Source: a virus. Taken from it: a stretch of DNA of 64,000 bases. A program made the position numbers and the translations under genes. The notes under the pieces are model-generated. The model made no database searches, was not told where the DNA came from, and saw nothing but the letters and a program-made list of their open reading frames with translations. The DNA lies in IMG/VR virus record IMGVR_UViG_3300013939_000001, positions 1 to 64,000 of that record. The stretch is one strand, 5' to 3'. Positions 9,199 through 61,590 of this stretch are shown here, in pieces; within the stretch, counting starts at the first letter, position 1; each line of letters begins with the position of its first letter.

Positions 9199-10194
9199 TC
9201 AGTCTACGAACTGCTTGTAGACCTTCGGGATTTCATCCCGGATCAGTTCGAACAGGTACATGTCCGACTGATACAGATCGATCGTCAGCCCATGGTTCCG
9301 GGCATGGAAGGCTCCGGACGCCAGCGCATTGGTGAAGATCGTGTCGATACCGAACCAGACCATCATCGTTGCGAACTGACTGACGATCAGATCGTCGTAG
9401 TCGCGATAGTCGGCCACACCGAGATGGCTGTAGCCACCCACGAGTCCGAAAATGCCGGCTTCGGCACACAGCACGCGATAGGCAGCGGCGGCGGCATTGA
9501 GCAGGCGCTTGCTGGGATGTGGATCAGGAGACTTCAGTCCCTGGTAACGATTCTTCTCACACAGCTGCATGATGTTGGACATCACGCGGAACGCCGGCGT
9601 TTCGGCTGGCGTAAGATCGTTACGATCGGTACCGCGTTTCAGGACGTACAGCATCAGTTGAGTGTAAGCCGTTCGTGCGCCTGCGGGAAGCATTGTGGTT
9701 GCGAAGGACTCGAAGCGACGGACTCGCGTCAAGCTCCACATACCTACCGCACCTTCTGAAGTGTATTTCCAGCTACGGCTGAAGTGAGCTTCCAGGTTCG
9801 GGGTCTCGATCGCCACTCGCTGATGATCGATCTTGATGGTGCGACCACGACTGCTCAGATGCAGTGTCGCCGTACTGGCCCGGTTCGGACTCGATGCGCT
9901 CATGAGCGTACCGACCCAAAGTTCATGGAAAGTGGGCGGAATGAAACTCACCGTCGCACCACCGCGCTTGGCCTTACGTTTCCGACGACCGCTACTGGTA
10001 CTGGCGTAGACAACCGCCAGCTCCACCGTCTGATCCATCGGGTCGATCGAAGGACTCTCGAGAACTTTCCGATAGGCTTCGACAGCCGGCAGGAAGACCT
10101 CCTGATAGATCCGATCAACCGAATCGTGATTGTCATCGGCCGGGTTGGCGGTACCTTCCGTGCGGAAGACCAGGTCGTTGATTTCGTTACTCAT
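9199..10194 (-). CDS. hypothetical protein, paralogue family member 2 (331 aa)
   Basis: ORF track; N-terminus RIYQEVFLPAVEAYRKVL...VELAVVYAS parallels RVYDEIFEMVRDIGKRYL...VEFGVVYSN of 7847..8782. Confidence 0.75.
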   Translation of the reverse strand: MSNEINDLVFRTEGTANPADDNHDSVDRIYQEVFLPAVEAYRKVLESPSIDPMDQTVELAVVYASTSSGRRKRKAKRGGATVSFIPPTFHELWVGTLMSASSPNRASTATLHLSSRGRTIKIDHQRVAIETPNLEAHFSRSWKYTSEGAVGMWSLTRVRRFESFATTMLPAGARTAYTQLMLYVLKRGTDRNDLTPAETPAFRVMSNIMQLCEKNRYQGLKSPDPHPSKRLLNAAAAAYRVLCAEAGIFGLVGGYSHLGVADYRDYDDLIVSQFATMMVWFGIDTIFTNALASGAFHARNHGLTIDLYQSDMYLFELIRDEIPKVYKQFVD

Positions 10195-10259
10195 TGCAGT
10201 GCCTCCTTGGGCATCATTTACAGCGATGGCGAGAGCCTCTTTGGGATCGCCGGGTGGAT

Positions 10260-10281
10260 CCTCCTCCCCGAAGGGAGGAGG
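10260..10281 (-). other. GC-rich hairpin without T tract
   Basis: Stem CCTCCTCCC/GGGAGGAGG, loop CGAA, 10 nt after stop of 10292..11374. Confidence 0.35.
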
Positions 10282-10291
10282 GGTGAAACTG

Positions 10292-11374
10292 TTACTGCTT
10301 GCAGCCCAACAGTTCGATCAGCCGCATCCTGTCAGCCTCGTAACCTTCAGCGGTGTACTCCTCATCATCCGCCAGCCGCTCGGAGAAGCACTGCAGGGCC
10401 AGAGCGTAGTTGCGTGCAAACTCCACGCCAAAGGTCGGCTTCAGGGATTCGACCACGGTCACGCCGAAACGTTCGAAGAACGGGACGGACAGGGTCTGCC
10501 GCCAAAGATTGTTGAGGACATGCGAGCTGCAGATCGTCGGCAACGTGGCGTGTGCGAACTGCGCCAAACGCGCCAGCGTCCGGTAGTAGCGTTCGGCACT
10601 GTCACCGACGTCGGCGATCGAATCGATCAGGCCGTCGTACATCCCCACGTCCTCCGCAACCATCGGCGACACCGTCTCCTTGTCAAATCGACCATTCGAA
10701 CGGAGACCATTCACGGTGAACAGACGGATGTCAGCGATATAACGATGGTTGCGGTTTTCCCAGGCATAGGGAGTTCTGCGCAGCAGCCTCATCAACTGCT
10801 GGACGGCCGCCACCTTGGTGACGGGCCGATACGCGGACATGTTAACCGCCACTCCATGTGCCGGATGCAGGGACTCAGTGAGGAACAGGCCGGTGGTCGG
10901 ATCGTATTTTCGGGTGACCCTCGACGTGGCCTTGGTCAACCGCCATACCGGATCCTTCGTCAGGCTTTCACGAACGCGCTCATATTCGAACTTACTGGGG
11001 TGTTCGAGCATCGTATCGACATCGCGGGTACCGTCGAACTCCATCACCGTCATCTTTGAAGGCGTCACCTCGGCAACACCGCCGTTGAAATTGACACGGA
11101 TACTGAGACCGTCGTAACGATCGTAGCGGTGCGTACGAGCCAGGGCGGCGTAGGGAAGCCCTTTGTGGTGATAGCAGAAACCGATCTGGATGAAGTGATG
11201 TTCCCTGCCCTGGGCAACCTCATTGGCGATCTGCGTCGCCAGGTCCTGGAACGCGCCGCTGGGCATGCCAGCTTCGTCGATCCATTCCGAGGGGGTCTCG
11301 AGGTAGGTGTAGAGCATGGTCTTACCGTCTTCACGGTAGGTGCCCTGGACAGATGCGGTGTTTTCGGTATTCAT
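10292..11374 (-). CDS. hypothetical protein, paralogue family member 3 (360 aa)
   Basis: ORF track; shared central block with the two genes downstream. Confidence 0.75.
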   Translation of the reverse strand: MNTENTASVQGTYREDGKTMLYTYLETPSEWIDEAGMPSGAFQDLATQIANEVAQGREHHFIQIGFCYHHKGLPYAALARTHRYDRYDGLSIRVNFNGGVAEVTPSKMTVMEFDGTRDVDTMLEHPSKFEYERVRESLTKDPVWRLTKATSRVTRKYDPTTGLFLTESLHPAHGVAVNMSAYRPVTKVAAVQQLMRLLRRTPYAWENRNHRYIADIRLFTVNGLRSNGRFDKETVSPMVAEDVGMYDGLIDSIADVGDSAERYYRTLARLAQFAHATLPTICSSHVLNNLWRQTLSVPFFERFGVTVVESLKPTFGVEFARNYALALQCFSERLADDEEYTAEGYEADRMRLIELLGCKQ

Positions 11375-39418: not shown

Positions 39419-40327
39419 TTAGGTGCGCGGCAGTACCACACCGGTCTGCTGCATGTACTTGCCGTCGCGATCCTTGTAGGAGGTCTCGCACTGTTCGTTG
39501 CCCTGGAAGAACAGCATCTGGGCAACACCCTCACCGGCGTAGATCTTGGCCGGCAGGTTGGTGGTATTGGAGAACTCCAACGTCACCTCGCCTTCCCATT
39601 CCGGCTCCAGCGGGGTAATCCCCACCACGATGCCGCAACGAGCATACGTCGACTTGCCCAGGCAGACCACCAGCGTGTCACGCGGGATACGGAAGTATTC
39701 CATCGTCCGTGCCAGAACGAACGAGTTCGGCGGGATGATGCAGTAGTCGCCTTCCACATCGACGAAGCTCTTCTCATCGAAGTTCTTCGGATCGACGATG
39801 GTGGAGTGGATGTTCGTGAAGACCTTGAACTGCCGGCCACAGCGAACATCATAGCCGTAGCTGGACGTACCGTAGGAGATGATCTTCTCCGGTTCCGGCA
39901 TGCCTTCCTCGACCATCCGCTCATAGACCAGCTTGGCGGTGGAGCGTGCGGTTTCGCGTTGTTCCTCGATGAGGTCGAACGCGATGTGGTCGGGCAGATT
40001 CGGATAGTCGTCCGGACTGAGCTTGTTCACTTCACGCAGGCGTTCTTCGGTGATCGACTCGAGCGTGATCTGGCGGTAACGCACCTGACCGGGCTCGAAC
40101 GGTTCAATCATCGGCGCAGGCCACTCGGCCAGACGACGCTCGGCCTCGGCCAGTGCCATCTTGGCGCGTTCGGAGTTGGGCTCGCCGACCTGATAGTAGA
40201 GATGGCTGCGCCAATCACGATCGTTGTTGAGCGAATCGGCGATGGCCTTCAGGCTCGGAGTCTGACACAGCTTGCGGATCTGGCGATCGGAAAGCAGGCC
40301 GCCACGGGGAATGATGCGATTGTTCAT
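39419..40327 (-). CDS. dcd: dCTP deaminase (dUTPase-fold Dcd) with two N-terminal insertions (302 aa)
   Basis: C-terminal ~175 aa [14 protein letters not shown]...[21 protein letters not shown]...[43 protein letters not shown]...[10 protein letters not shown] is colinear with the short proteobacterial Dcd. Confidence 0.85.
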
Positions 40328-40352: not shown

Positions 40353-40376
40353 GCCCCTCCCCTTTCGGGGAGGGGC
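40353..40376 (-). terminator. rho-independent-like terminator
   Basis: Stem GCCCCTCCCC/GGGGAGGGGC, loop 4 nt, minus-strand tail TTTCTATCTCAAAGGTTTTTT; after stop of AAA gene 40391..41623. Confidence 0.65.
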
Positions 40377-40390
40377 GTGACTGTGCCTAG

Positions 40391-41623
40391 TTAGGCGCGC
40401 AGACGGTCACCGGTGACGTCGACACCAACGGTGTCTTCACCCTCACCACTCTCGAGGTTGGCAGCGTTGGCGGCCTTGGCCCGCTGATCCATGATCTCCG
40501 AGTAGTGGTTGTCGAACTTGTACTCGCCGGTGTAGCTGGCGCCGAGCTTCGGGGTGAAGTTGTTGATGATCTTGAACTTGTAGGTGATCTCGTACTCACC
40601 GAAGGTCTCGGTGAAGCCGGCATCGCCGCCGTTCTCGTGGTTCTTGTAGTAGTCGACGGTTTCGACCAACGGCAGTTCGATGTCGAACAGGTTGTCGATG
40701 TCGCCCTTCAAGCAGCCACGTGCCGTGAGCGTGGTGGTATCCCAGCGGACGGTTTCCGGACGGATGAAGACCGGGGTGCCGTCCTTGTAGATCGTCAGGA
40801 CCTGGGGTTCCACACGACCCCAACGCGGCACGTTCATGATCTCCAGGAAGTCGTAGATCTCCTTGTCGGACTTGCACGGACGGATCATCTTGGCCACGCT
40901 GCACAGCATGTCCCACGAGATGTTGTGGGTGCTGACGTAGCGGGTCAGGCCGGCAATCTGTGCCGGGGTCAGCTGGAAGTGCTCACCCACTTCCAAGGCC
41001 GCATCGGTACGCAGATCCGAGAAGGTCAGACGGTAGCGGAAGCGACCCGGACGGTCGTAGATCATGTCCGGGAATTCCTTCTTCTCGTTGCCGGTCACGA
41101 CGAACAGGACGCCGGTCAGGGTGCTGTCGGAGAACAGCGGCAGCAGGCGAGCACGTTCACCCTCGTCGTAGAACTTGCCGAACTCGTCGAAGTACACCAT
41201 GCACGGGCCGGTGGCGGCGATGATGTGGCGCAGCATGTCCGGACCCAGCGGCTGGGAGATCATGATCACCGGCAGCCCACCGCCGATCATCCAGTTGCCC
41301 AGATCTTCAGCGAACATCGACTTGCCCGAGCCCTTCAGGCCGGCCAGCAGCACGCCCAGGGACGGATTGTGACGATCGTAGTCGTCCTTGATGCGTTCCA
41401 TGTGGCGGTTGTGGTGGCCGAAGCGCTTTTCCGGCACGGTGAAGGTCGCACTGACCTTGTTCCAGCGGATCTCGATGCCGGTGATCGGGTTGGACTCGAC
41501 GACGATCTCGTAGACCGCTGCCGGCAGGTGATCCACCGGCGGGGTCGAAGCGTCGTGGAGACGGAAGTTGTAGTGGCCGCCGCGATCCATGAACTGCTTT
41601 TCGAACTTGGAGTTGCTGGACAT
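40391..41623 (-). CDS. classic-clade AAA+ ATPase, paralogue 1 (410 aa)
   Basis: Walker A LLAGLKGSGKS, Walker B MVYFDEFGK, sensor-1 VVTGN, SRH/Arg fingers YDRPGRFRYRLTF; about 170-aa C-terminal domain with NVPRWG. Confidence 0.85.
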   Translation of the reverse strand: MSSNSKFEKQFMDRGGHYNFRLHDASTPPVDHLPAAVYEIVVESNPITGIEIRWNKVSATFTVPEKRFGHHNRHMERIKDDYDRHNPSLGVLLAGLKGSGKSMFAEDLGNWMIGGGLPVIMISQPLGPDMLRHIIAATGPCMVYFDEFGKFYDEGERARLLPLFSDSTLTGVLFVVTGNEKKEFPDMIYDRPGRFRYRLTFSDLRTDAALEVGEHFQLTPAQIAGLTRYVSTHNISWDMLCSVAKMIRPCKSDKEIYDFLEIMNVPRWGRVEPQVLTIYKDGTPVFIRPETVRWDTTTLTARGCLKGDIDNLFDIELPLVETVDYYKNHENGGDAGFTETFGEYEITYKFKIINNFTPKLGASYTGEYKFDNHYSEIMDQRAKAANAANLESGEGEDTVGVDVTGDRLRA

Positions 41624-41685
41624 CGTGTAATCCTTTTGTTTTTCTGAGAGTGAGGAGTGTTGCTAGGTACTACAGGGGGAAAGTG

Positions 41686-43002
41686 TTAGCCGACACCGGC
41701 AGCTGCGGCCTGGGCGATCGCTCCGAACAGGGACGCCATTTCCTGACGATCCTCTTCATCCATATCTTCCATTTCATCGCGGATGCCTGCATGGAAGTCC
41801 GGGCTGTTGGCCGACGTGTAGCCACGGCCCGCCGACAGATCGAACGGGGTATCGCCCGTTTCTTTCTTACCGACGCTGCGGGGACGGTTTTCGAAGTGCA
41901 CGAACGCACGGTCTTCCGGATCGCGGATACGCGAGTTGGACATCACCGCGAACACGCGGGAACTGCCGCCGCCGGTGGGTGCCACGCGGAAGGTCAGCTT
42001 GAAATCGCCAACTGAGATGGTGATGTCCGCTTCGGCCTTGCGATACCAGTCGCGGGATTCCTGCAGCGGGATCTGGACGATACGCTCGATGTCGAACTTC
42101 TCGCCCTCCAGGCAGGTGACCGTCAGGTGCTGACCATCGTAGGCGGCCTTGTCGAAGCGCAGACGCTTGCCGTTCTCCACGAGCTTGACCACGTTCACGC
42201 CCGACCAACCCCAACGCGGTACGTTGATGATTTCCAGACGATCGCGGATCTCGTCTTCGGTCTTGGCGCCCTTGATGTGTTCAGCCACCGAGGCCAGCGT
42301 GTCGTAGCCGATGCGATCAGTGCGCACGTAGCGCATCAGGCCAACAGTCTGCCATTCTTCCAGGCCGTGTGCGGCAGCCACTTCAGCCACGTCTTCAGCC
42401 GACAGGCCGGCGAAGTGCAGGCGGTAGCGGAAACGACCGGGACGATCGACCATCGGGTCGGAGAACTCGTTGTAGTCGTTGGCCGTGACAACGAACATCA
42501 CACCGCGCATGTCCGAATCGGAGAACAGCGCGATCATCTTGTCGCGCAGGCTTGTCTTTTCGTAGGTCTTGCCGAATTCATCGAAGTAGATGATGCACGG
42601 CCCGACTGCCTGCACGACCTTGCGGATGAACGGTGCGGGGATGGACGACATGACCATCAGCACCGGAACGCCCTGGGCGCGAATGCCCCAATTGCCGAGG
42701 TCTTCGGCAAACAGGGACTTACCGGCACCCTTGATGCCGACGAGCATCACACCCATCGACGGACTTTCGTGGTGGTAGTTCTCCTGGATCAGGCTCAGGT
42801 ACTTCTCGTGAGCGCCGTAGCGGGCGCCGCCCTGTTCGAAGTGGGTGCCGCGCTTGGACAGGCGCAGTTGGACACCCTGCTGGGTTTCGATCATCTCGAT
42901 CTCGTACACCGCCGGGTCCAACTTGGTGGTGGTACGGGACGGATCGAAATGTTCGAACGTCTTGAACGTTCCGTGATCATGGAACTGACTCTGCATGTGC
43001 AT
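41686..43002 (-). CDS. classic-clade AAA+ ATPase, paralogue 2 (438 aa)
   Basis: Start placed at ATG 43002; Walker A MLVGIKGAGKS, Walker B IIYFDEFGK, VVTAN, VDRPGRFRYRLHF, NVPRWG; acidic C-terminal tail DEMEDMDEEDRQEM. Confidence 0.85.
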   Translation of the reverse strand: MHMQSQFHDHGTFKTFEHFDPSRTTTKLDPAVYEIEMIETQQGVQLRLSKRGTHFEQGGARYGAHEKYLSLIQENYHHESPSMGVMLVGIKGAGKSLFAEDLGNWGIRAQGVPVLMVMSSIPAPFIRKVVQAVGPCIIYFDEFGKTYEKTSLRDKMIALFSDSDMRGVMFVVTANDYNEFSDPMVDRPGRFRYRLHFAGLSAEDVAEVAAAHGLEEWQTVGLMRYVRTDRIGYDTLASVAEHIKGAKTEDEIRDRLEIINVPRWGWSGVNVVKLVENGKRLRFDKAAYDGQHLTVTCLEGEKFDIERIVQIPLQESRDWYRKAEADITISVGDFKLTFRVAPTGGGSSRVFAVMSNSRIRDPEDRAFVHFENRPRSVGKKETGDTPFDLSAGRGYTSANSPDFHAGIRDEMEDMDEEDRQEMASLFGAIAQAAAAGVG

Positions 43003-43006
43003 GAGG

Positions 43007-43171
43007 CTACTCTTTGGGCTTAACAGGAGCTTTGCTTTTCGGGAGCAAAGCACGGAGCTCGCGACGGCGGACGCGCTCTTCAGGAGTCACGTCACGCCCT
43101 TTGCGAACGAGTGCAACAAACTCAGCGTAGTCACGTTTACGCTGAGCTTTCGCGATGGGACCTTCGGACAT
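43007..43171 (-). CDS. small basic protein (54 aa), not in ORF track
   Basis: ATG 43171 overlaps upstream stop (TGATG); MSEGPIAKAQRKRDYAEFVALVRKGRDVTPEERVRRRELRALLPKSKAPVKPKE; its stop TAG is 4 nt before the AAA-2 start. Confidence 0.5.
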   Translation of the reverse strand: MSEGPIAKAQRKRDYAEFVALVRKGRDVTPEERVRRRELRALLPKSKAPVKPKE

Positions 43172-43755
43172 CAGATGTGTTTGACGCCGTTGAACGGGTC
43201 GCGCTTGGCCGGAATCTCGAAGTCGATATCCACGGGGATATCCTTGTACCAGCAGACCATCGTGACGTGACCGCGGATACGTGTGACCTGACGGTAGCGG
43301 ATGTTGGTGAAGAGCAGTTCGGGGTTCTTCGCCACCAGTTCGCGGATGACGAACTCGTTGGCCTCCAACGGATCGTAGAACTTGTCGTCAGCGCGCTGCT
43401 TGCGCAACAGCTTAGCACGGGCGGCCCAGAACTGCTGGCGGATGTCGTCCGGAACGATCTTGTTGCGCAGATGGTGCGGGACAATGCGCACGATGTGCAG
43501 CAGCATGTCGCAGGGACGATGACCGACAAGCCTGGCCTTCCAGACCGCAGACTTCAGGCCGACCGTGAAGTTGTTGCGGGCTGGCCAATCCCTCAGGCCG
43601 GCACCGCCGTTGAAATCGGAAGGACTCAGAAAGACCTGGAACTGCCTGTCGAGCGATTGGGCCAGGAACTTGAACAGGTCGGCCCTGGTGAACTTCATGC
43701 TCGGATCGTAGCGCATCTGCAGATGGATCGGCGGACCCTTGATTTTGCGTCCCAT
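43171..43755 (-). CDS. hypothetical protein (194 aa)
   Basis: ORF track. Confidence 0.7.
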   Translation of the reverse strand: MGRKIKGPPIHLQMRYDPSMKFTRADLFKFLAQSLDRQFQVFLSPSDFNGGAGLRDWPARNNFTVGLKSAVWKARLVGHRPCDMLLHIVRIVPHHLRNKIVPDDIRQQFWAARAKLLRKQRADDKFYDPLEANEFVIRELVAKNPELLFTNIRYRQVTRIRGHVTMVCWYKDIPVDIDFEIPAKRDPFNGVKHI

Positions 43756-43757
43756 GG

Positions 43758-44270
43758 TCAGTCCTTCTTTTTGTTGTTCTTGCCGAAGTCGCGATGGATG
43801 ACATTACCCACGGTCTGTTCGACCGGAGCTTCCTGATCTTCCTGGTTGGACGGCTCGTCCTGCACGGCACCGATCTGACCCGGACGGATCAGCGGACGGC
43901 GTTCGGTCGTCGGACGACCCTTGACGACCGGACGGTTCGGATCACCCACCACACGGCCCACGCCGGTGTTGTGGTCGAACACGGCGATGATGTCAGCCGT
44001 GGGGAAGGTCAGGTGCGACGAGCGGCCAGAGAAGCGGCAGGTCATCGAGGCGGTCCCATCATGCAGCGAGAGGTTGGCCAGGGCCTTCGCACCCACGTTC
44101 AGGACGATCAGTCCTTCTTCGAGGTAGTTCGGCGGGATGAACCCGCTGATGTTTTCCGTACGGACCTGCAGGTACGGCAGACCATCGGCGGCGATGATCG
44201 CATTGATCATGGCCTGCGCCAGGTACGTTTCGAAGTCGTAGTGAACCGGGGTGCTATTCGTATCGTCCAT
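43758..44270 (-). CDS. SspB-like (ClpXP adaptor-like) protein (170 aa)
   Basis: Start at ATG 44270 (AAGGA SD). Core GLIVLNVGAKALANLSLHDGTASMTCRFSGRSSHLTFPTADIIAVFDHNTGVG is colinear with E. coli SspB GQIVLNIAPRAVGNLELANDEVRFNARFGGIPRQVSVPLAAVLAIYARENGAG (recalled). It is followed by a Pro/Gln/Glu-rich linker and a basic tail. Confidence 0.55.
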   Translation of the reverse strand: MDDTNSTPVHYDFETYLAQAMINAIIAADGLPYLQVRTENISGFIPPNYLEEGLIVLNVGAKALANLSLHDGTASMTCRFSGRSSHLTFPTADIIAVFDHNTGVGRVVGDPNRPVVKGRPTTERRPLIRPGQIGAVQDEPSNQEDQEAPVEQTVGNVIHRDFGKNNKKKD

Positions 44271-44277
44271 CGTTTCC

Positions 44278-44796
44278 TTACCCGTTGTTGTTTCGTGCAA
44301 TCGATTCGCGGACCCACTCGTTGAAGCGGGTGTCGTAGCTCAGACCCAACAGCGTGCCGTAACCGTGCGGGTCACGTGCGCTGAAGGAGTAATCAATCTC
44401 ACCGCCACGGCGCTGCATCTCACCAATGAACCGGCTAACCGACTCGAGGTAGGGACGCATTTCTTCCAGCGCTGGCTCCTGCATCGTGCGCGCCACCATC
44501 AGGCGATGTTCGCCCGCCGGAGGACGTGCCATGCACTGGACCAGATAGATCAGGCGGTTGGCGTCTTCACGCGTCTTGGCGCCCCAGGGAATCAGGACGG
44601 CTGCCGGTTCGCGAATGGGCGCATCTGCCCACCACGAAACGGCCATTGGCGATGGGCAGTCAATCAGTCCGTTGTTGAGCAGAAAATGCGTGTACATCAC
44701 GGACGATCTTTTCGGCAGCATCGAATCAATGACCGGTGCTGGGGACTGTACCAACTCACGAGATGGCGATCTCAGGGTAAACAGATAGGCGTTCAT
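44278..44796 (-). CDS. hypothetical protein (172 aa)
   Basis: ORF track; GGAG SD after terminator tail. Confidence 0.7.
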   Translation of the reverse strand: MNAYLFTLRSPSRELVQSPAPVIDSMLPKRSSVMYTHFLLNNGLIDCPSPMAVSWWADAPIREPAAVLIPWGAKTREDANRLIYLVQCMARPPAGEHRLMVARTMQEPALEEMRPYLESVSRFIGEMQRRGGEIDYSFSARDPHGYGTLLGLSYDTRFNEWVRESIARNNNG

Positions 44797-44810: not shown

Positions 44811-44838
44811 GCGGCGACCTCCCGAAGGAAGTCGCCGC
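44811..44838 (-). terminator. rho-independent terminator
   Basis: Stem GCGGCGAC..CC/GG..GTCGCCGC, minus-strand tail TTTTCTGGAG; 5 nt after stop of 44844..45359. Confidence 0.7.
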
Positions 44839-46290: not shown

Positions 46291-46842
46291 TTACGGTTTC
46301 TGGCTCAGGTTGAACTTCAGGGCGCTCACTCGCTGTATCGCGTACATCATCGGTACATCGAAATGGGCGGCCACTTTCACCCACGCCACGCGCTCCACAC
46401 ACGGCAAGAACGTCTTGAGGAATTCACGCAGTTCTTTGTCGGGGATCAACAACTCCCCGGTGAAACGCTGCGAGAAGATTTCGTGGGGATCGTTGTGGGT
46501 GGTGCCCAGGTCATTGTCGGTGACCTTCCACGACGGACCCGGCTGCTCGGACAGGAACAGACCAAACACACGGGACACGAACACCCGGCGATTGGCACTG
46601 GACATTGCATACTTCCTGCCTGTGCTGATGCGCATGACCATTCCGTCACCGCTTTCCGTCAACTCAGCGCCGTTGTAGGGCTGGCCAATGTAGTTGACGA
46701 CCTTGATACCGGCCTTGGTAAGCATGGCCTCCACGTCAACCGGGAAGCCAGGTACAGCGTATTCCCGTCGGAACGTTGCAAGCGGGATGTGATGATCTCT
46801 CACGTGGACACCTCGATCAGGCTTTTGTTTGCGATAAGTCAT
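46291..46842 (-). CDS. ImmA/IrrE (M78)-like protein lacking the HEXXH motif (183 aa)
   Basis: PVDVEAMLTKAGIKVV..., then RRVFVSRVFGLFLSEQ where family members have R.T.AHELGH..LH, then HEIFSQRFTGELLIPDKELREFL (family E..AN.FA..LLMP) and VAAHFDVPMMYAIQRV. Confidence 0.45.
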   Translation of the reverse strand: MTYRKQKPDRGVHVRDHHIPLATFRREYAVPGFPVDVEAMLTKAGIKVVNYIGQPYNGAELTESGDGMVMRISTGRKYAMSSANRRVFVSRVFGLFLSEQPGPSWKVTDNDLGTTHNDPHEIFSQRFTGELLIPDKELREFLKTFLPCVERVAWVKVAAHFDVPMMYAIQRVSALKFNLSQKP

Positions 46843-54790: not shown

Positions 54791-55168
54791 TTAGTAGATG
54801 CGCTTTTGTTGCAGGCCGCCTGGAGTCGGTCGGATCTCACGATCCTTCTGACTCTTAAGCACGATCACAGCCAGATCACACATGCGAGTGGATACCCTGA
54901 CGCGATAAATTGCGTGGCTATGAACCTCGGACAGATACAGCGGTTTGGTCATGTCTTTCAGACGTGCCGAACGTGCGTACTGTCCGACCAATTCCGTCAG
55001 GCGCATTGGCGACTTGGAAGCGCGGGCGACTACGAAATTCAGTTCGGACACGCGAAGCGGACTGACAACCTGATGAATCGCCTGATGCCCGATGAACGGG
55101 ATCTGGTAATTCGTGGTCATTCGGTAGATCGCTTGATGGCCAAACTCTGAGGCGCGGTATTCGCTCAT
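54791..55168 (-). CDS. small virion-module protein S1 (125 aa), paralogue of 57625..58002
   Basis: Both start MSEY and share YARSARLKDMTKPLYLS / YLRSARLKDMSKPLYSS and VIVLKSQKDREIRPTPGGLQQKRIY / VIVLKSQKDRVIRPVPGGLMQHRIY. Confidence 0.8.
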   Translation of the reverse strand: MSEYRASEFGHQAIYRMTTNYQIPFIGHQAIHQVVSPLRVSELNFVVARASKSPMRLTELVGQYARSARLKDMTKPLYLSEVHSHAIYRVRVSTRMCDLAVIVLKSQKDREIRPTPGGLQQKRIY

Positions 55169-55180
55169 GACGGTCTCCTA

Positions 55181-56344
55181 TTACGGGACCGTCGCGTTCA
55201 GCCGCACGATCGGGGTACGGATGTCGGCTTCGTCGATGCCCACCAGACGAGACAGGAGGTAGGGGTTGTAGCCGTTTCCTGTGGCGATGTTGGACGGCGG
55301 AGCCAGCGAACCGCTGCCATCGGACTTGCGCAGTTCGGCTGTCAAGATGCGGCCTGCGTCGCGATCACGGCTAGCGCGAATCACTACTTCCGAGGCCAGG
55401 GTCTTGAACGGCGTGTTGACGCCGGCAACCTTCGCACTCATTGCGCCTGCATCGGCCGGCGAGGCGTAGTAGGTCGCATCGTCGAAATCGGTCAACGTGT
55501 CCGACGCAGTGGCGTTGCCTTCCTTCTCCCACGCACCCGGCGTCACCGTTGAGATCTTGCTCGGCAGAATCAACTGCGGACCAATCCCCTTGTCGAACAA
55601 ACCGGCGTTCGCATCGGAGATGATGATGTCCGAATACAATGAGGCGATGGTCACCTGCGCATTCAGGATATTGATGCCGTAGAAGAAACTGATGCCTGTG
55701 GTGTTGAGTCGATTATCGACATTGGTCGCGGTTTCGATCAGATCGCCATCGATATACAGTTCGAAATCGTAGGTACCTGCGGCAGCGCCGAGCCTACGGA
55801 TCGCACGGATTTCGATGTGGTACTCGCGACCAGCCACCAGGTAGGGATACTTCGTGACCGGGATGGCCGGGTTGTTGAAGAATGAGAGCTGGATGGCGGT
55901 GTCCGTTGTTGACGAACGAATCTTCAACATGACAAGGGCAGCGCCAGCATCGCCCGAATAGATCGAGAACAGCGGCACTACGTTGTTGCTGGTATTGATT
56001 CCCGGCAAGACCTTGTAGGTGAATGCCGTGCAGACCATCCCGCCTTCGGCCGGTGCGGTCAGGGGAGTGATGTTTCGCAGGTAGGCGTTCGTGTTTTGGT
56101 TGCCCATGCGCTTGACGACGAACGCATTACGCTCATACACCGAACCAGGGGACATCTTGTGGGCCGCCTGTCCCGACACACCAATCTGATTGTTGAGCGT
56201 GGGGCTAGAAGCAACGGCAGTACTGACGACCCGGAAATCCGGAGCGTAATGGGTCTTTTCGATACCGGCGCCGTTGACGATGTAACCGCCTGCGTCGACG
56301 TTACCGGGGTAGAGATCGAACCCCAACATATATTTCAGAGCCAC
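55181..56344 (-). CDS. beta-rich virion-module paralogue A1 (387 aa), putative fibre/baseplate/receptor-binding component
   Basis: Paralogue of 58015..59163 (MALKYMLGFDLYPGNVDAGG / MTLKLMAGFDMYPGAADANK; REYHIEIRAIRR..ELYIDGDLI / REYHIEVRIYRR..DLYIDGEFV); structural role is inference. Confidence 0.8.
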   Translation of the reverse strand: MALKYMLGFDLYPGNVDAGGYIVNGAGIEKTHYAPDFRVVSTAVASSPTLNNQIGVSGQAAHKMSPGSVYERNAFVVKRMGNQNTNAYLRNITPLTAPAEGGMVCTAFTYKVLPGINTSNNVVPLFSIYSGDAGAALVMLKIRSSTTDTAIQLSFFNNPAIPVTKYPYLVAGREYHIEIRAIRRLGAAAGTYDFELYIDGDLIETATNVDNRLNTTGISFFYGINILNAQVTIASLYSDIIISDANAGLFDKGIGPQLILPSKISTVTPGAWEKEGNATASDTLTDFDDATYYASPADAGAMSAKVAGVNTPFKTLASEVVIRASRDRDAGRILTAELRKSDGSGSLAPPSNIATGNGYNPYLLSRLVGIDEADIRTPIVRLNATVP

Positions 56345-56356
56345 GGGATTATCTCC

Positions 56357-57607
56357 TCAGGAAACTTTGAGCTGGACGGCCAACTTACCACTATCGGCGA
56401 ACTCCAGCGCGGCCGCTCCTGCGACAGTGTTGGGGACGAGGTTCACGATGCGTTGGTAATTCATGACGCCGGTCACCGCGCGGTTGGGATCGTTGGCCAC
56501 GATCGCACCATCGGACATCCTGGTCAGGCTGGTGGACAACTGCATCGGGGCCGAAGCGGGAACGTCACGCCGTACGCGACCATACATCATCACGCCGTTG
56601 ACTTCGGCGCCCACCGGCAATCGCAGATTGTAATTGGCGGTCATCGGTGTCTTGTCCAGCGCCGAGGTGACGTAGGTCGCGTCGTTACCATCGGTAAGGG
56701 CTTGGATCATCGGCACACCGCCGAACGTGTCCCATCCCGATGCGGTCACCGTTTCCAGCGCCGCCGGCAGAATTACCTGCGGACCCAGCGGAGCAGTCCA
56801 GTTACCGTCAGCATCCACACAGCTGCTGATCATCAGATCGGAAAGACCGAAGGAGTTGGTGTAGGTCGCCGCCTGCGTTGCCGTGGCCTGGATCGTGAAC
56901 CGAAGACGACTCTGGGCAATGGTGGTCTGCGACACACTCCATGGCTTGGCTGCGTACAGCAGATCGCCATTGACGTAGAGCTTGACATCCACAACCGCGT
57001 TACCGGTACCGGGATTCTCCCAGCCAATCTCAACTTCGAAATGAGTCGGCTGGCCCTTGATGATGTCCGGACAGAGGTTTGGACTGATACCACTGATAGC
57101 CCAGTACGAACGGCTTCCGGCGACCGCCCTCGTCACAAGTGGCGTTGAGCTCGATCCGAAGAACACATCGACGTTCGACGCCGGCATCGCAATCGGCGCA
57201 GCGGGATTGGGATACTCAGTAAAGTCGGTCAAGTTGAAGCCAAAACGAATGCCGTACTTGGCACCAACGACACCGGGATTGCCACGGTCAGGGATACCTG
57301 CCGTCCAGAAGGTCGTTTTCAGGTTCGTGTTGTTACCACGACCCGCTTGGAAGACGAACGTATTGCGGCGTTCCGCACCGACACCGATCTTGTGTCGCTC
57401 CAGGCCCGTCACACCGGCATTGTTGTAGCCGAAGTTGGCTTCCGACGGCAACGTCCACGGATAACCGTAGGTCAGACTGGTCAGTTCGTCTGCGATCGGG
57501 GTGCCGGCGTGGGCGCCCAGGATCGGGTCGTCCGCATCGACGCCCGATCCACCCTTAGTCCCGGTCCCGAAGATGTCGAAGCCGAGAAAATTCAAAACAC
57601 GTTTCAT
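56357..57607 (-). CDS. beta-rich virion-module paralogue B1 (416 aa)
   Basis: Paralogue of 59174..60418 (NAGVTGLERHKIGVGAERRNTFVF / NAGVTNLEKHRVGTGADRRNTLVM; THFEVEIGWENP..LYVNGDLL / THFEIELICENP..IWINGDLV). Confidence 0.8.
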   Translation of the reverse strand: MKRVLNFLGFDIFGTGTKGGSGVDADDPILGAHAGTPIADELTSLTYGYPWTLPSEANFGYNNAGVTGLERHKIGVGAERRNTFVFQAGRGNNTNLKTTFWTAGIPDRGNPGVVGAKYGIRFGFNLTDFTEYPNPAAPIAMPASNVDVFFGSSSTPLVTRAVAGSRSYWAISGISPNLCPDIIKGQPTHFEVEIGWENPGTGNAVVDVKLYVNGDLLYAAKPWSVSQTTIAQSRLRFTIQATATQAATYTNSFGLSDLMISSCVDADGNWTAPLGPQVILPAALETVTASGWDTFGGVPMIQALTDGNDATYVTSALDKTPMTANYNLRLPVGAEVNGVMMYGRVRRDVPASAPMQLSTSLTRMSDGAIVANDPNRAVTGVMNYQRIVNLVPNTVAGAAALEFADSGKLAVQLKVS

Positions 57608-57624
57608 AGGCTCCTCGTGATGCC

Positions 57625-58002
57625 TTAGTAAATGCGATGTTGCATGAGACCGCCCGGTACCGGACGAATCACGCGATCCTTCTGGCTCTTCAGGACGATA
57701 ACCGCCACTTCGTTCAGTCGCGTCTTGACCTGCACCGACACCACCGTCTGCGCAACGATCTTGGAAGAGTACAAAGGCTTGGACATGTCTTTCAGACGTG
57801 CCGAGCGCAGGTACTGTACTGCCAACATTGTTACGCGAGCAGGAGACGAAACGCCTCGCATGCTTTGAGCGGCGAGCATCATCACTCTCGAATCAGCGAT
57901 GGGGGTGAAGACACTCTGGCCGACCAACAGTGGAACTCGATAACTGGTGGTCAGCCGGTATACGGACTGCAGCGCGATCTTTGTTGCGAAATACTCGCTC
58001 AT
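57625..58002 (-). CDS. small virion-module protein S2 (125 aa)
   Basis: Paralogue of 54791..55168, same length and same position relative to the A/B genes. Confidence 0.8.
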   Translation of the reverse strand: MSEYFATKIALQSVYRLTTSYRVPLLVGQSVFTPIADSRVMMLAAQSMRGVSSPARVTMLAVQYLRSARLKDMSKPLYSSKIVAQTVVSVQVKTRLNEVAVIVLKSQKDRVIRPVPGGLMQHRIY

Positions 58003-58014
58003 GATCGCCTCCTA

Positions 58015-59163
58015 TTACGGCGTGGTGGCGGTCAATCGCACAGTGGGGGCGCGAAGGTCGGCCTCGGATGCGTTGATCACGCGAGGCAGCAGGTAGTTGT
58101 TGTATCCGTTGGCCGTGGCGATGTTCTGCGTCGCAACCAGGTTGTCGCCGGCACTACCCAGCAGGTCCACCGACAGCGTACGGCCCGCATCGCGGTCACG
58201 GCTGGCACGAATCACCACCTCGGTGGCACGGGCCGGATAGCTCACCAGCGGCGCTGCAACTTTGATTGACATCGAACCTGCATCGTTGGGCGATGCGTAG
58301 TAGGTGGTGTCGTCATTGTCGCTGAGGGTATCCACTGGGGTGGCGTTACCTTCCTTCTCCCAGTTGCCCGGAGTCACTGCCGAAACCTTCGTCGGCAACA
58401 CCAGCTGGGGACCGATACCGGCAGCGAACAGAGTGCCACCCGGCTCGGAAATGAGGATGTCGCCCAGCAGCATCGTCATGGTGAGATTGGCGTTGATCGA
58501 CGCATTGCCGAACATGAACTTCACGCCGGCCGTTTCGATGGGGACGTCCGCAAATCCGGGCGAGTTGATGACAAATTCGCCATCGATGTAAAGGTCTGCG
58601 GTGATCCTACCGACCGGATCATTCAACCGGCGATAGATTCGAACCTCTATGTGATACTCTCGACCGACCGTCAGATACGGGTACGTGGTGAGCGGCAATG
58701 CAGCGGTCCTCCAGATGATCTGGAGTGTGGCATCCGATGCAGCCTGAAGACGCAGGAGAATACCGCCACCGACGGTGCCGTTGACCGAAGAGGTCAGAGT
58801 GACGACGTTGTAGGCGTAGCCGGCTGTGTTGACGCCCGGCAGAACCTTCAGGGTGAATGCGCAGGCAACGATGTCGCCTGCGTTCGGAGCCTTGTAGGTT
58901 TCCTTGGTGCGGGCGATCAGCGCCGTACTCTGCGAGCCGGAGCGACGGAAGACCAGTGCGTTGCGCTCGACCGCAGAGCCCAGACCGAGCTTGTGTTCGG
59001 GCAGTCCAGTCACGCCGTAGCTGTTGTTGGCTGCGGGGGTACGGACTTCCTCGAAGAGGTTGGCGTAGTGGGTACCAGCAATGCCCTGACCTTGGATCGG
59101 GAACTTGTTGGCGTCGGCTGCACCCGGATACATGTCAAATCCGGCCATCAGCTTGAGAGTCAT
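58015..59163 (-). CDS. beta-rich virion-module paralogue A2 (382 aa)
   Basis: Frame of ORF 58015..59220; start placed at ATG 59163 (AAGGGG SD), matching the A1 N-terminus. Confidence 0.8.
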   Translation of the reverse strand: MTLKLMAGFDMYPGAADANKFPIQGQGIAGTHYANLFEEVRTPAANNSYGVTGLPEHKLGLGSAVERNALVFRRSGSQSTALIARTKETYKAPNAGDIVACAFTLKVLPGVNTAGYAYNVVTLTSSVNGTVGGGILLRLQAASDATLQIIWRTAALPLTTYPYLTVGREYHIEVRIYRRLNDPVGRITADLYIDGEFVINSPGFADVPIETAGVKFMFGNASINANLTMTMLLGDILISEPGGTLFAAGIGPQLVLPTKVSAVTPGNWEKEGNATPVDTLSDNDDTTYYASPNDAGSMSIKVAAPLVSYPARATEVVIRASRDRDAGRTLSVDLLGSAGDNLVATQNIATANGYNNYLLPRVINASEADLRAPTVRLTATTP

Positions 59164-59173
59164 GATTGTCCCC

Positions 59174-60418
59174 TTAGGCGACGAAGTTGTAGTTGATGCT
59201 GAGCTTGCCGGTGTCGGCAAAGGCCAGTCGGTCGATACCGGCCTGGGTGTTGGGGAGAATCGACATCACCCGCTGGTACTGCGGATTGGCACCCACCGTG
59301 AACGATGCGGCAGTTCCCGGCAGCGCAACGCTATCCAGAGTGCGGGTACCATCCACCTTCACGGAGAAAGGAGCGGACGCTGCGACGCTCCTGGATGTAC
59401 GCATGTAGACGTTGAGACCATTCAGTTCAGCACCCACGGGGAGCTGGAGATCCACGTCGACCTTCATCGGCGTGCGCGGCTGCGGGGACTGGACGTAGGT
59501 TCCATCGTCCGCATCGGTGAGCGCCACTGCGGCACTGCTACCGGTCACCGACCAATTCGCGCCTGTGAACCCCGTCACTTGGGCCGTCTTGACGATCTGC
59601 GGACCCAGCGGTGGGATACGTTCGAGGGCGGCGTTGAATGGATTGGAGACCACCAGGTCAGAGATACCGAACGAATTGAACCAGGTGCCGGCACCGCTGG
59701 GAGGGCAGTTCAGACGCATCCGGTATTCGTAGATCGACGTTTGTCCGATCGACCACGCGATGAGGCCGTTTACCACCAGATCGCCATTGATCCAAATGTT
59801 CAGTCTCAGATCGGCGTTACTGCTGGCCGGGGGATTTTCGCAGATCAGTTCGATTTCGAAATGGGTCGGCACACCCTTGACGATTTCCGGGTACTGCGTA
59901 TTGGGGACCTGGGGGACCTGCCAATAGCTCTTGCCGTTTATCACGGCTCGCTGGACTGCCGTGAATACGTTGGTTGACAACATCAACGTGACGACAGGAT
60001 TGGCAGCCACCGGAGCGGCCGGGTTGAGGAATTCGGTGAAGTCGGTGAGATAGAACGCATACCGGATGCCCGTCTTCACACCTGCCACTCCCGGCGAACG
60101 TCGACCAGCAGCGGTGTAGACATTGACCATCGCCGTCGAATTCGTCGATCGACCGCAATTCATCACCAGCGTGTTACGCCGATCTGCACCGGTACCGACA
60201 CGGTGCTTTTCCAGGTTCGTGACACCGGCATTGTTGACCTGGAAGCTGCCGTCAGTGACGGTGGGCCAAGCCAGCCCGTACACGACCGACAGCTCCTCAC
60301 CGATGGGAGTGTTCCAGGTGTTTACGCCGGTGGGATCGTCTTTGTCCGCGCCTGCGCCACCCTTGACCGCGCCGCCAAACAGATCGAATCCGTTGAACGA
60401 ATAGATGTTGTTATCCAT
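59174..60418 (-). CDS. beta-rich virion-module paralogue B2 (414 aa)
   Basis: See B1. Confidence 0.8.
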   Translation of the reverse strand: MDNNIYSFNGFDLFGGAVKGGAGADKDDPTGVNTWNTPIGEELSVVYGLAWPTVTDGSFQVNNAGVTNLEKHRVGTGADRRNTLVMNCGRSTNSTAMVNVYTAAGRRSPGVAGVKTGIRYAFYLTDFTEFLNPAAPVAANPVVTLMLSTNVFTAVQRAVINGKSYWQVPQVPNTQYPEIVKGVPTHFEIELICENPPASSNADLRLNIWINGDLVVNGLIAWSIGQTSIYEYRMRLNCPPSGAGTWFNSFGISDLVVSNPFNAALERIPPLGPQIVKTAQVTGFTGANWSVTGSSAAVALTDADDGTYVQSPQPRTPMKVDVDLQLPVGAELNGLNVYMRTSRSVAASAPFSVKVDGTRTLDSVALPGTAASFTVGANPQYQRVMSILPNTQAGIDRLAFADTGKLSINYNFVA

Positions 60419-60429
60419 GGGGAGGTTCC

Positions 60430-61590
60430 TTAAACCTTGACCTTGATTTGGAGGTTGTCCAGCGTCGGTCCCTGCAGCACTGCCATGTCCGAGGTGAGGG
60501 ATGGCATGTACTTGGTCAGCAGAGCATCAGCGACAGTCGTACCGAACGAGACGGTACCCGGCTGGATCTCCGAACTGCCCGTAACGATCGTGGTCGCCAT
60601 CGGGCGAGATGCGCCGACGTCACGGGATCCACGTGCGACCACCTGGAGGCCGTTGAGGATTGAACCCTGGTGCAGGTTCAGGTCAAACATTGCGTTGACG
60701 GTGGCTTCACCCAAGGGCGACTGGATGTAGCTGGCATCGCTACCATCGGTCAGAGCCGTGGTCACATCTGCCGCACCGGTCAGATCCCAACTGGCAGCAT
60801 CGGCGGCCACGGCGGTCTTGTACAGAACCGATTGCGGTCCCAGACGGTCATTGTACGGCGGCTCACCTTCGTGGTTGACCACGTAGATGTCGCCGATCGC
60901 CATGTACATCGGGAACGGATTGGAGCCGTGGTCCGGATAACCCACTTCGATGCCAACCGTGGCACCAGACAGCGCCAGACCGCCCAGGGAGCGATCCCAG
61001 GTGTAGATCAGCTGTTCGTCGATGTAGACCCTGGCCGACACCGGGTTGGACGAAGCGGGATTCTCGGGGGCGTCGTAGAACAGCTCGACCTCGATGTAAT
61101 ACTCGCGGTTGCGTTCGACGTCCATCAGCTCCGTACCGATGGCGAGCTTACCGTCATTACGACGGTTGATCAGGCCCATACGGCTGGTGTTACGCCAGGC
61201 CGAGACCATAGCGTAACCCAAGGTAGGCTCCTGCCCGGTCAGATCCTTGTAGGTGAAGCCAGCGATCACACGCCAGCTACGATTGGTGTTGGCATTGAAG
61301 TTCTCCACCAGCATCATACGTGCACCAGCGGTGATGTTCAGCACCGGAGTGTTGCGGAAGATGATGATCGGATTGCGCTTCTCACCAGCCTTACCGATCT
61401 GGTGCTGCGGCAGCCCCGTGACGCCGATGGCGTTCTGCGCCGGGAGCTTGGAATACAGGTAAGTGGTCAGTGCGGCATTGCGGGTACCGACCAGTCCCAC
61501 GCCGTTCGCAGGTGCCGTCGCAGCTACGCCGTCAGCGCCCTGCACGCCCGAGCCAACCCCGTCAAACGAGTAGAAAGCTTGCAGTGACAT
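60430..61590 (-). CDS. beta-rich virion-module paralogue C (386 aa)
   Basis: Shares the family core IGVTGLPQHQIGKAGEKRNPIIIFRN and REYYIEVELFYD..RVYIDEQLIY with the A and B types. Confidence 0.8.
   Translation of the reverse strand: MSLQAFYSFDGVGSGVQGADGVAATAPANGVGLVGTRNAALTTYLYSKLPAQNAIGVTGLPQHQIGKAGEKRNPIIIFRNTPVLNITAGARMMLVENFNANTNRSWRVIAGFTYKDLTGQEPTLGYAMVSAWRNTSRMGLINRRNDGKLAIGTELMDVERNREYYIEVELFYDAPENPASSNPVSARVYIDEQLIYTWDRSLGGLALSGATVGIEVGYPDHGSNPFPMYMAIGDIYVVNHEGEPPYNDRLGPQSVLYKTAVAADAASWDLTGAADVTTALTDGSDASYIQSPLGEATVNAMFDLNLHQGSILNGLQVVARGSRDVGASRPMATTIVTGSSEIQPGTVSFGTTVADALLTKYMPSLTSDMAVLQGPTLDNLQIKVKV

Follow-up and report, generated by a model that had tools for sequence, protein, structure and literature searches.

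SspB proteins of cellular bacteria tether to the N-terminal domain of ClpX (PMC9963277), and SspB homologs have been noticed in two large phages. For both, namely gp18 of Pseudomonas phage pf16, which is described as close to the SspB of its own host (PMC5587285), and gp039 of Erwinia phage RAY (bioRxiv 10.1101/2023.02.24.529968), the authors propose that ClpXP is modulated. Here we analyze a further case, an SspB-family gene that shares a gene string with two adjacent AAA ATPase genes, AAA1 and AAA2, at positions 40391 to 44270 of a 64,000-nucleotide stretch of viral DNA (positions 1 to 64,000 of IMG/VR record IMGVR_UViG_3300013939_000001; this whole stretch is referred to as the window). Like pf16 gp18 and RAY gp039, the window gene is an SspB-family gene of a large phage; unlike the window, neither of the two reports mentions an adjacent AAA pair. 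An earlier note, made from the sequence alone, had offered two readings of the locus: a hetero-hexameric unfoldase of the phage itself that feeds an HslV-like peptidase, or an SspB mimic acting on host ClpXP. The first reading fares poorly on pore loops, docking elements, and gene linkage, and the second is better supported, by family membership and by the tail motif of the protein. With a little better than even confidence, we conclude that the locus combines two separate functions, an SspB adaptor that acts on host ClpXP and a duplicated AAA ATPase that acts independently of it.

Phages are known to modulate host AAA+ proteases with proteins that are not adaptor homologs, among them SPO1 gp53 (ClpCP) and T4 PinA (Lon). 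The role proposed here resembles theirs in that a phage protein would redirect or block an ATP-dependent protease of the host; the window protein is the adaptor homolog itself. For the AAA pair, the closest described proteins are the phage ATPases of PHROG 2376, including PA10_00288 of pPa_SNUABM_DT01, phi92 gp190-like proteins, gp41 of Brochothrix phage A9, and an 'AAA superfamily ATPase' of Herelleviridae, which have the same architecture and motifs. The window differs from most of these relatives in that its AAA gene is duplicated in tandem and has SspB in the same string, whereas the relatives are mostly single-copy and SspB-free. The closest protein of solved structure is Bacillus subtilis YjoB (PDB 7W42; best Foldseek match to AAA2, E 3.6e-9), in which a single classic AAA module likewise follows a family-specific N-domain, and which is a proposed substrate-specific chaperone, not a threading unfoldase, with noncanonical loops lining its pore (PMC9565160). 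The likeness has limits: YjoB is 14% identical to AAA2 with a TM-score of ~0.4, has a different N-domain and no C-terminal β-sandwich, and is a cellular protein. Thus, with the AAA family already catalogued and phage SspBs already reported, this is not a new system. What may be new is the tail motif that the phage proteins have in common with a chromosomal SspB, the loss of pore loops throughout the AAA family, and the strong conservation of a small protein, p54, encoded between the SspB and AAA genes.

Results

The phage protein belongs to the SspB family

The 170-residue protein encoded by the third gene upstream of AAA2 had been likened to Escherichia coli SspB in the earlier note, and this identification, including the position of the gene three genes upstream of the AAA pair, held up. 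We found significant matches to Pfam PF04386 (expectation value (E) 3.8e-12, 46.9 bits, gathering score 27), to PHROG 8945 'SspB-like' (E 2.7e-8), to the solved SspB structures 1OU8, 1OX8, and 8ET3 in the PDB (E 3e-8 to 6e-7), and to the NCBIfam models for the ClpXP specificity-enhancing factor (E 1e-16). The equivalog level of NCBIfam was missed (best 60.9 bits against a cut-off of 135), so the protein is a family member and not an equivalog. On these profile comparisons, we conclude that it is a bona fide member of the SspB family.

The layout of the protein is that of bacterial SspB (E. coli and Haemophilus influenzae; 1OU8, 1OX8/1OX9, and 8ET3). A substrate-binding core at about residues 15 to 107 is followed by a long, disordered, Pro/Gln/Glu-rich linker, the counterpart of the acidic/Pro-rich disordered linker of the bacterial proteins, and by a short conserved C-terminal tail, so that the linker and tail described in the earlier note are both present. 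To score conservation, we aligned 219 SspB sequences and used the 183 with a canonical tail to define near-invariant columns (conservation of 95% or more). Of the 11 core columns obtained in this way, 10 have the same residue in the phage protein, the exception being a Trp in the first helix that is replaced by Ala. A cryo-electron microscopy study locates the conservation of SspB in its dimer interface and its ssrA-binding groove (PMC9963277); because 10 of the 11 columns are kept, both are probably retained in the phage protein. Four features set it apart from most bacterial SspBs: its tail (NVIHRDFGKNNKKKD), the Trp-to-Ala replacement, scores below the equivalog cut-offs, and a phage operon in place of a site adjacent to sspA. 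A tblastn search with the window protein against 50,697 phage records gave no match at E 1e-5, from which we take it to represent a separate, divergent phage lineage.

The tail motif recurs in a chromosomal SspB

The tail of the phage protein, NVIHRDFGKNNKKKD, is not of the L(R/K)VVK type, and it is conserved across the phage orthologs. We surveyed the tails of the 150 best SspB representatives that a search across 1.84 billion proteins had yielded. The canonical ClpX-binding form, L(R/K)(V/I)(V/I)K, accounts for 117 of these, and about 12 fall in an NV(I/V)x(V)xFG / VLQFPKR class. A chromosomal member, P0139, ends in NVIHVQFGRDEEDS and has the motif NV(I/V)H(V/R)xFG in common with the phage tail. 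On the metagenomic contig that encodes P0139 (L019), a gene for an SspA-like protein with a glutathione S-transferase fold precedes sspB (E 1e-40), and in an uncultured gammaproteobacterial metagenome-assembled genome (L100) the locus has the order petA-petB-petC-sspA-sspB.

Because the same motif ends a chromosomal SspB, and because cellular SspBs are established to tether to the ClpX N-domain (PMC9963277), the NVIHRDFGK-type tail can be read as a tether to host ClpX. Judged by this shared motif, the phage SspB tail most likely tethers to the N-domain of host ClpX, and NV(I/V)HxxFG may be a second, previously undescribed class of ClpX-tethering peptide. We also considered the NV..FG tail as a phage-specific handle for the AAA proteins. 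This is not our leading reading, since P0139 is chromosomal and since the noncanonical tail class also occurs in two phage-like loci, L017 and L018, both of which are without AAA. At positions 455-1709 of L018, a 2.1-kb metagenomic contig, the SspB gene (tail NVISVNFGKPSSES) overlaps a downstream gene for a D12-class (Dam-like) DNA methyltransferase and looks like another mobile-element SspB with a noncanonical tail.

The AAA pair has classic-type motifs and a classic-type predicted fold

AAA1 and AAA2 (410 and 438 residues) are tandem paralogs, as had been read from the sequence: they are 40% identical over 349 residues (BLASTP, E 4e-79), and both copies contain every one of the motifs quoted for them, namely G(L/I)KG(S/A)GKS, YFDEFGK, T(G/A)N, DRPGRFRYRL, and NVPRWG. 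Both match PHROG 2376 'ATPase' (E 1.7e-40 for AAA2 and 1.8e-39 for AAA1) over residues ~20-295, which cover the N-domain and the AAA module, and the Pfam AAA matches of both are marginal (26.6 bits for AAA2). By tblastn, the PHROG 2376 family is found in at least 380 phage records, always annotated as 'ATPase' or hypothetical. These relatives occur in Herelleviridae, in phi92-, rV5-, and phAPEC8-like coliphages, in lactococcal 949-like phages, and in several jumbo phages. Foldseek relatives among phage models (BFVD) come from Atu_ph07, pEa_SNUABM_47, Lpa804, SE131, and crAss-like phages.

We built an AlphaFold2 model of AAA2 on a 41-sequence family alignment (predicted local distance difference test (pLDDT) 86.7). 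The model shows an N-terminal β domain (~1-52), an AAA module (~80-260), a β-sandwich (269-340), a disordered stretch, and a C-terminal helix. Its 50 top Foldseek matches in the PDB are all classic AAA proteins, with YjoB first and the remainder made up of p97, FtsH/i-AAA, Rpt, PAN, Bcs1, Vps4, NVL, and Rix7. The family alignment shows no variation in Walker A, Walker B, the sensor-1 Asn, or the R-P-G-R arginine fingers, and the window proteins have Walker A and B, sensor 1, and the RPGRF arginine-finger motif in common with FtsH, PAN, and p97. When aligned with hhalign to the FtsH AAA module, the family gave a probability of 97%, with its arginine fingers opposite FtsH RPGRFD. The alignment ended before the sensor-2 region, where, by eye, RIGYDTL lies opposite FtsH GFSGADL with no Arg at that place. 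HslU and ClpX are members of an AAA+ clade other than the classic one. The assignment to the classic clade made in the earlier note is thus borne out by the motifs of the second region of homology (SRH) and by the Foldseek neighbors; what departs from it is the β2-α2 segment, from which pore loop 1 is deleted.

The AAA family lacks the canonical elements of a threading unfoldase

In the AAA2 model, DSSP places β2 at residues 114-117 and α2 at 123-133, which leaves a connector of five residues. In the hhalign alignment to FtsH, 12 residues are missing over the segment that contains pore loop 1 (...FVEMFVGVGAS...) and 10 over pore loop 2. The spacing between Walker A and Walker B is 43-47 residues in 117 of 117 family members, compared to 53 in FtsH, and no conserved aromatic residue is present in the AAA connector. 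As modeled and aligned, then, pore loop 1 is missing and pore loop 2 is shortened across the whole PHROG 2376 family. The C-termini, which the earlier note had described as free of an HbYX-type motif, are indeed so: neither AAA1 (...DRLRA) nor AAA2 (...AAGVG) has HbYX, an IGF loop, or an HslU-type C-terminus, and the region past residue 345 is unconserved and of low model confidence. The window proteins therefore differ from the AAA+ protease motors (FtsH, PAN/Rpt, p97, HslU, and ClpX) in having no aromatic-hydrophobic-Gly pore loop 1, a short pore loop 2, and no docking element. Because the pore loops, the connector aromatic, and a docking motif are absent, a canonical role of the AAA pair as a threading unfoldase is unlikely.

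SspB and AAA are linked within one phage group

Relatives of the window keep the gene order p281, p171, p172, SspB, ..., dCTP deaminase, and vary in their AAA content. The window and L010 have SspB, p194, p54, and two AAA genes, as do L005 and L007 (AAA 71% identical) and L009 (54% identical). A 6.1-kb contig encodes SspB (P0045) and two AAA proteins (P0003 and P0013). In L015, SspB is present with a single AAA gene, which it overlaps by 4 nucleotides, and both p194 and p54 are missing; L017, a 198-kb contig, has SspB and a p54-like gene, no p194, and no AAA gene within 10 kb. Within one conserved gene order, therefore, the AAA copy number ranges from 0 to 2 while SspB is constant.

Beyond this group, we scanned IMG/VR and obtained 463 AAA relatives, of which 80 loci, making up 27 clusters at 60% identity, were kept. 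Using a local SspB hidden Markov model that recovered 12 of 12 positive controls, we detected SspB within 10 kb of AAA at none of these 80 more distant loci, and AAA was single-copy at all 80. Co-conservation of SspB and AAA among related phages, which a joint module of the kind suggested in the earlier note would call for, thus fails beyond the immediate phage group, and the AAA family occurs without SspB in most phages.

To characterize the surroundings of the family, we assigned the 101 nearest same-strand AAA neighbors in the 27 cluster representatives to PHROG families. Recurrent neighbors were HNH endonucleases, DNA polymerases, and DHH/RecJ phosphoesterases, with ribonucleotide reductases among the single matches. 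In the phi92-like phage Paula, the AAA gene lies beside nrdD and nrdG, and in Staphylococcus phage CF9 it lies amid helicase, primase, and RecJ genes. An HslV-family gene (PHROG 1040) was a neighbor in one of the 27 lineages (L031), which groups with pPa_SNUABM_DT01. Because the HslV neighbor is found only in this DT01-like clade, the link to a peptidase is a trait of one clade and not of the family.

Organization of the gene block

All genes of the block are on the minus strand and are transcribed in the order p172-SspB-p194-p54-AAA2-AAA1, followed by a dCTP deaminase gene (Table 1). The coordinates given earlier for AAA1, AAA2, and the SspB-like gene, and the tight packing of the string, are all correct: intergenic gaps run from -1 to 7 nucleotides, with the exception of the 62 nucleotides between AAA2 and AAA1. 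At each end, the six-gene block is bordered by a strong GC-rich hairpin with a T-run. The upstream hairpin ends 15 nucleotides before the start codon of p172 and abuts its ribosome-binding site, which leaves no space for a promoter, and a scan for sigma-70 promoters inside the block found none. The hairpins may be partial terminators or RNA-stability elements as opposed to operon boundaries, and the block is likely co-transcribed, with read-through from upstream.

Table 1 Features of the SspB-AAA gene block and of the peptidase candidates. Coordinates are positions in the window.
Feature	Coordinates	Strand	Basis or remark
Hairpin, 12 bp, with T-run	44811-44838	-	Directly 5' of p172 ribosome-binding site
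p172	44278-44796	-	First gene of block; conserved neighbor upstream of SspB
SspB-family adaptor, 170 residues	43758-44270	-	Third gene upstream of AAA2; Pfam PF04386
SspB C-terminal tail GNVIHRDFGKNNKKKD	43761-43808	-	Putative ClpX-tethering motif, noncanonical class
p194	43171-43755	-	Restricted to lineages with two AAA genes
p54, small basic protein, 54 residues	43007-43171	-	Most conserved gene of block
AAA2, 438 residues	41686-43002	-	PHROG 2376; Pfam AAA; AlphaFold2 model
AAA2 residues 118-122 (MSSIP), β2-α2 connector	42637-42651	-	DSSP on model; site of pore loop 1 in classic AAA
AAA2 sensor-1 Asn175 to arginine fingers R187-P-G-R190 (SRH)	42433-42480	-	Family alignment
AAA1, 410 residues	40391-41623	-	AAA2 paralog; catalytic motifs all intact
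Hairpin, 10 bp, with T-run	40353-40376	-	Between AAA1 and dCTP deaminase gene
dCTP deaminase (context)	39419-40327	-	Pfam DCD E 1e-31; PHROG 1663 E 3e-59
HslV-family Ntn-hydrolase-like protein (Hsl2), 343 residues	28250-29281	-	PHROG 1040
Second claimed HslV-like gene (Hsl1)	5690-6328	-	N-terminal MTLIIY..AD motif alone

The smaller proteins of the block have no assigned family: p172 and p194 gave no match in Pfam, PHROG, or NCBIfam, and p54 gave none in Pfam or PHROG. Orthologs of p172 lie immediately 5' of SspB in L005, L009, L015, and L017 (25-74% identity). Those of p194 are found in L005 (63%) and L009 (30%) and are absent from L015 and L017. Between L005 and the window, p54 is 94% identical, compared to 49% for SspB, 63% for p194, and 71% for the AAA genes; judged by these identities, p54 is the gene under the strongest constraint in the block. 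It is also present in L009 and L017, its homolog in the AAA-less L017 coming after SspB, and its conserved motif is AQ..RDYAEF.ALVRKGR..T.EE..RRRELR.

The dCTP deaminase gene is the conserved downstream neighbor and follows the AAA or SspB genes in L005, L010, L015, and L017. The block is part of the early/middle DNA-metabolism region of a large phage. The L007 AAA1 ortholog is found on contigs of up to 310 kb, which suggests a genome of jumbo size. The host genus is probably Stenotrophomonas, because the L007 AAA1 ortholog bears the name of a Stenotrophomonas assembly ('AAA family ATPase [Stenotrophomonas sp. GD03657]'). A megablast search of the block against the 50,697 phage records returned no match.

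One of two HslV-like genes is recovered by profile searches

The earlier note had named two HslV-like genes elsewhere in the window, and one of them has profile support. Hsl2 matches PHROG 1040 'peptidase HslV family' at E 9.3e-8 and has no Pfam match. Its N-terminus reads MTCIVV..., with Thr first after Met, and its C-terminus is long, basic, and of low complexity; on these sequence features, its assignment as a putative N-terminal nucleophile (Ntn) hydrolase of the HslV/proteasome-β type is moderately supported. An Hsl2 ortholog in L007 (59% identity) occupies the same relative position. By comparison, Hsl1 has no match in Pfam, PHROG, NCBIfam, or the PDB, and its single-sequence AlphaFold2 model is unusable (pLDDT 36). 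Comparing Hsl1 by hhalign with a four-sequence alignment of phage HslV-like proteins gave E 0.13, a comparison without power given that the E. coli HslV control gave 0.12. Hsl2 is on the strand of the AAA genes, about 10-11 kb downstream of them, and Hsl1 lies 34 kb away.

Searches for related peptidases returned little. With tblastn, Hsl2 had no match and the HslV-like protein of pPa_SNUABM_DT01 matched its own record only, a weak test for such divergent proteins, and local phmmer searches with the HslV-like proteins against all fetched loci gave no match. When E. coli HslV was the tblastn query, the only matches were to contaminating host DNA in 'phage' records. These are short GenBank records bearing host hslV, among them OR845448.1, OR851086.1, and OR849164.1, with 97% identity to E. 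coli and ~55% in the Listeria/Enterococcus records; they look like pieces of host DNA that were deposited as phage sequence. In pPa_SNUABM_DT01 (L001), the gene right after the HslV-like gene (10005-10586) encodes a protein that starts MTLAVW... and is possibly a second Ntn-like protein. The Pfam scan of the rest of the window detected no ClpP, Lon, or ClpX.

Discussion

In the reading that we favor, the phage SspB homolog would dimerize and bind a peptide degron in its conserved groove, its NVIHRDFGK-type tail would attach it to the ClpX N-domain of the host, and the protein would either hand selected host or phage proteins over to host ClpXP or act as a competitor of the host adaptor. Separately, AAA1 and AAA2 might form a homo- or hetero-oligomeric ring that hydrolyzes ATP without threading its substrate. 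Such a ring could serve as a chaperone or remodeler for the replication and nucleotide-metabolism module, acting through its N-terminal β domain and C-terminal β-sandwich, much as is envisaged for YjoB.

Several observations weigh against this division of labor. SspB and AAA are adjacent or nearly so in five divergent lineages of the phage group, down to the 4-nucleotide overlap in L015, and this adjacency could reflect function and not shared ancestry. The Pseudomonas jumbo phage pPa_SNUABM_DT01 has the order AAA, a 105-residue open reading frame, HslV-like, and the order is repeated in L031, a 277-kb IMG/VR contig. Directly N-terminal to its AAA core, AAA2 carries a (K/R)x(Y/F)G loop (residues 60-63) that hardly varies in the family, and the pore of YjoB is lined by an N-terminal hairpin that is similarly placed (PMC9565160). 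By analogy, the AAA2 loop could line the pore as well, and for this reason the loss of the canonical pore loops does not by itself strictly bar the ring from engaging substrate. Finally, a remodeler role of the AAA proteins in the replication module is weakly suggested, with gene neighborhood as its one line of evidence.

The adjacency of the two genes invites the alternative that fares best, although we consider it unlikely: SspB and AAA would cooperate without proteolysis, with an SspB dimer recruiting a client to a nonthreading AAA ring and the tail binding ClpX in cells and the N-domain of the AAA proteins in phages. Such a partnership would fit the synteny and translational coupling that the two genes show in this phage group, the conserved N-terminal domain of the AAA proteins could take the tail peptide, and the best structural match, YjoB, is itself a proposed chaperone. 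A tail specialized for the AAA ring is hard to reconcile, however, with the same motif in cellular P0139 and in the AAA-less L017 and L018. The AAA family is also found nearly everywhere without SspB, and AAA copies come and go between 0 and 2 in a gene order in which SspB stays.

Somewhat less likely again is a partnership without SspB, in which the AAA family would supply the ATPase for phage HslV-like peptidases and would serve them as a gatekeeper or allosteric activator, not as a translocase. The gene order AAA, small open reading frame, HslV-like that is kept in pPa_SNUABM_DT01 and L031 points this way, as does the HslV-family gene that both the window phage and L007 keep ~10 kb downstream of AAA on the same strand. 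This adjacency is confined, however, to one of the 27 sampled lineages, and the AAA proteins have no docking motif. Set against the 380 AAA records, the tblastn searches with the HslV-like proteins found nothing or the query's own record, which for proteins this divergent is a weak test.

We give still less credence to a private phage protease, in which the SspB adaptor would serve a hetero-hexameric AAA1/AAA2 unfoldase that passes substrates to one or both HslV-like Ntn peptidases. Such a pathway would account for SspB and AAA in one gene string, for their synteny within the phage group including the L015 overlap, for intact catalytic motifs in both AAA copies, for an HslV-family gene in the same phage, and for the near adjacency of AAA and HslV-like genes in pPa_SNUABM_DT01 and L031. 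What counts against it is the machinery that it requires: throughout the family, pore loop 1 is missing and the second pore loop is short, and the AAA C-termini are unconserved and carry neither an HbYX nor an HslU-type tail. The peptidase candidates are 11 and 34 kb off, the more distant of them (5690-6328) without a profile match. SspB persists without AAA in L017, the tail motif occurs in a chromosomal sspAB operon, SspB is found at none of the 80 distant AAA loci, and an HslV-like neighbor is found in one of the 27 lineages. The most elaborate version, in which the NV..FG tail of SspB would dock on the AAA1/AAA2 N-domain, the relocated (K/R)x(Y/F)G loop would grip the substrate, and the HslV-like peptidase would degrade it, is the least probable of all; if it were true, three different cellular protease systems would have contributed parts to one adaptor-motor-peptidase system.

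Returning to an SspB adaptor on host ClpXP beside an independent AAA ATPase, phage SspB homologs had been noticed earlier and never characterized, and the window lineage adds a clean, testable case. If the phage SspB retargets host ClpXP, its cargo would point to the host proteins that the phage needs removed. On the AAA side, a common phage ATPase that keeps the classic catalytic motifs and has lost both pore loops narrows the roles that the family could have, and PHROG 2376 proteins should not be annotated as unfoldases or as 'Zn metalloprotease'.

Other features of the window

The window is transcribed almost wholly on the minus strand, has very few recognizable genes, and abounds in open reading frames without known relatives. 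A Pfam scan of 84 further open reading frames matched 10 families at E 1e-5, including RecJ, a divergent DnaB, PhoH, thioredoxin, a SleB-like cell-wall hydrolase, a pilin-type N-methylation motif, and DUF7941. The last of these was matched twice, by two proteins of the window, and the relatives L009 and L017 likewise have several copies of it. We found no transfer RNA, transfer-messenger RNA, or Rfam match in the window, and therefore no phage ssrA nearby.

Two kilobases upstream of the block, a 183-residue protein encoded on the minus strand at 46291-46842 has a Peptidase_M78 / IrrE-like domain, which Pfam detects at E 3.9e-5 and with 23.9 bits, the gathering score being 22. Downstream of the block, the dCTP deaminase of the window (302 residues, no intein) has an N-terminal extension of ~150 residues, with the DCD match at residues 153-275; its orthologs have 208 residues in L015 and 249 in L017. 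In L005 (12663-14549), and also in L006-L008, the dCTP deaminase has 628 residues and contains an intein (Pfam Intein_splicing between two DCD halves).

A segmental duplication occupies 54794-61590 on the minus strand, where a unit of three genes (125, ~390, and ~415 residues) is present in two copies whose matching genes are 50%, 49%, and 42% identical. The proteins of this region gave no PHROG match (none of three tested) and no Pfam match (none of five). A related fifth gene, of ~386 residues, lies at 60433-61590, and all five large proteins of the duplication are mutually 25-49% identical.

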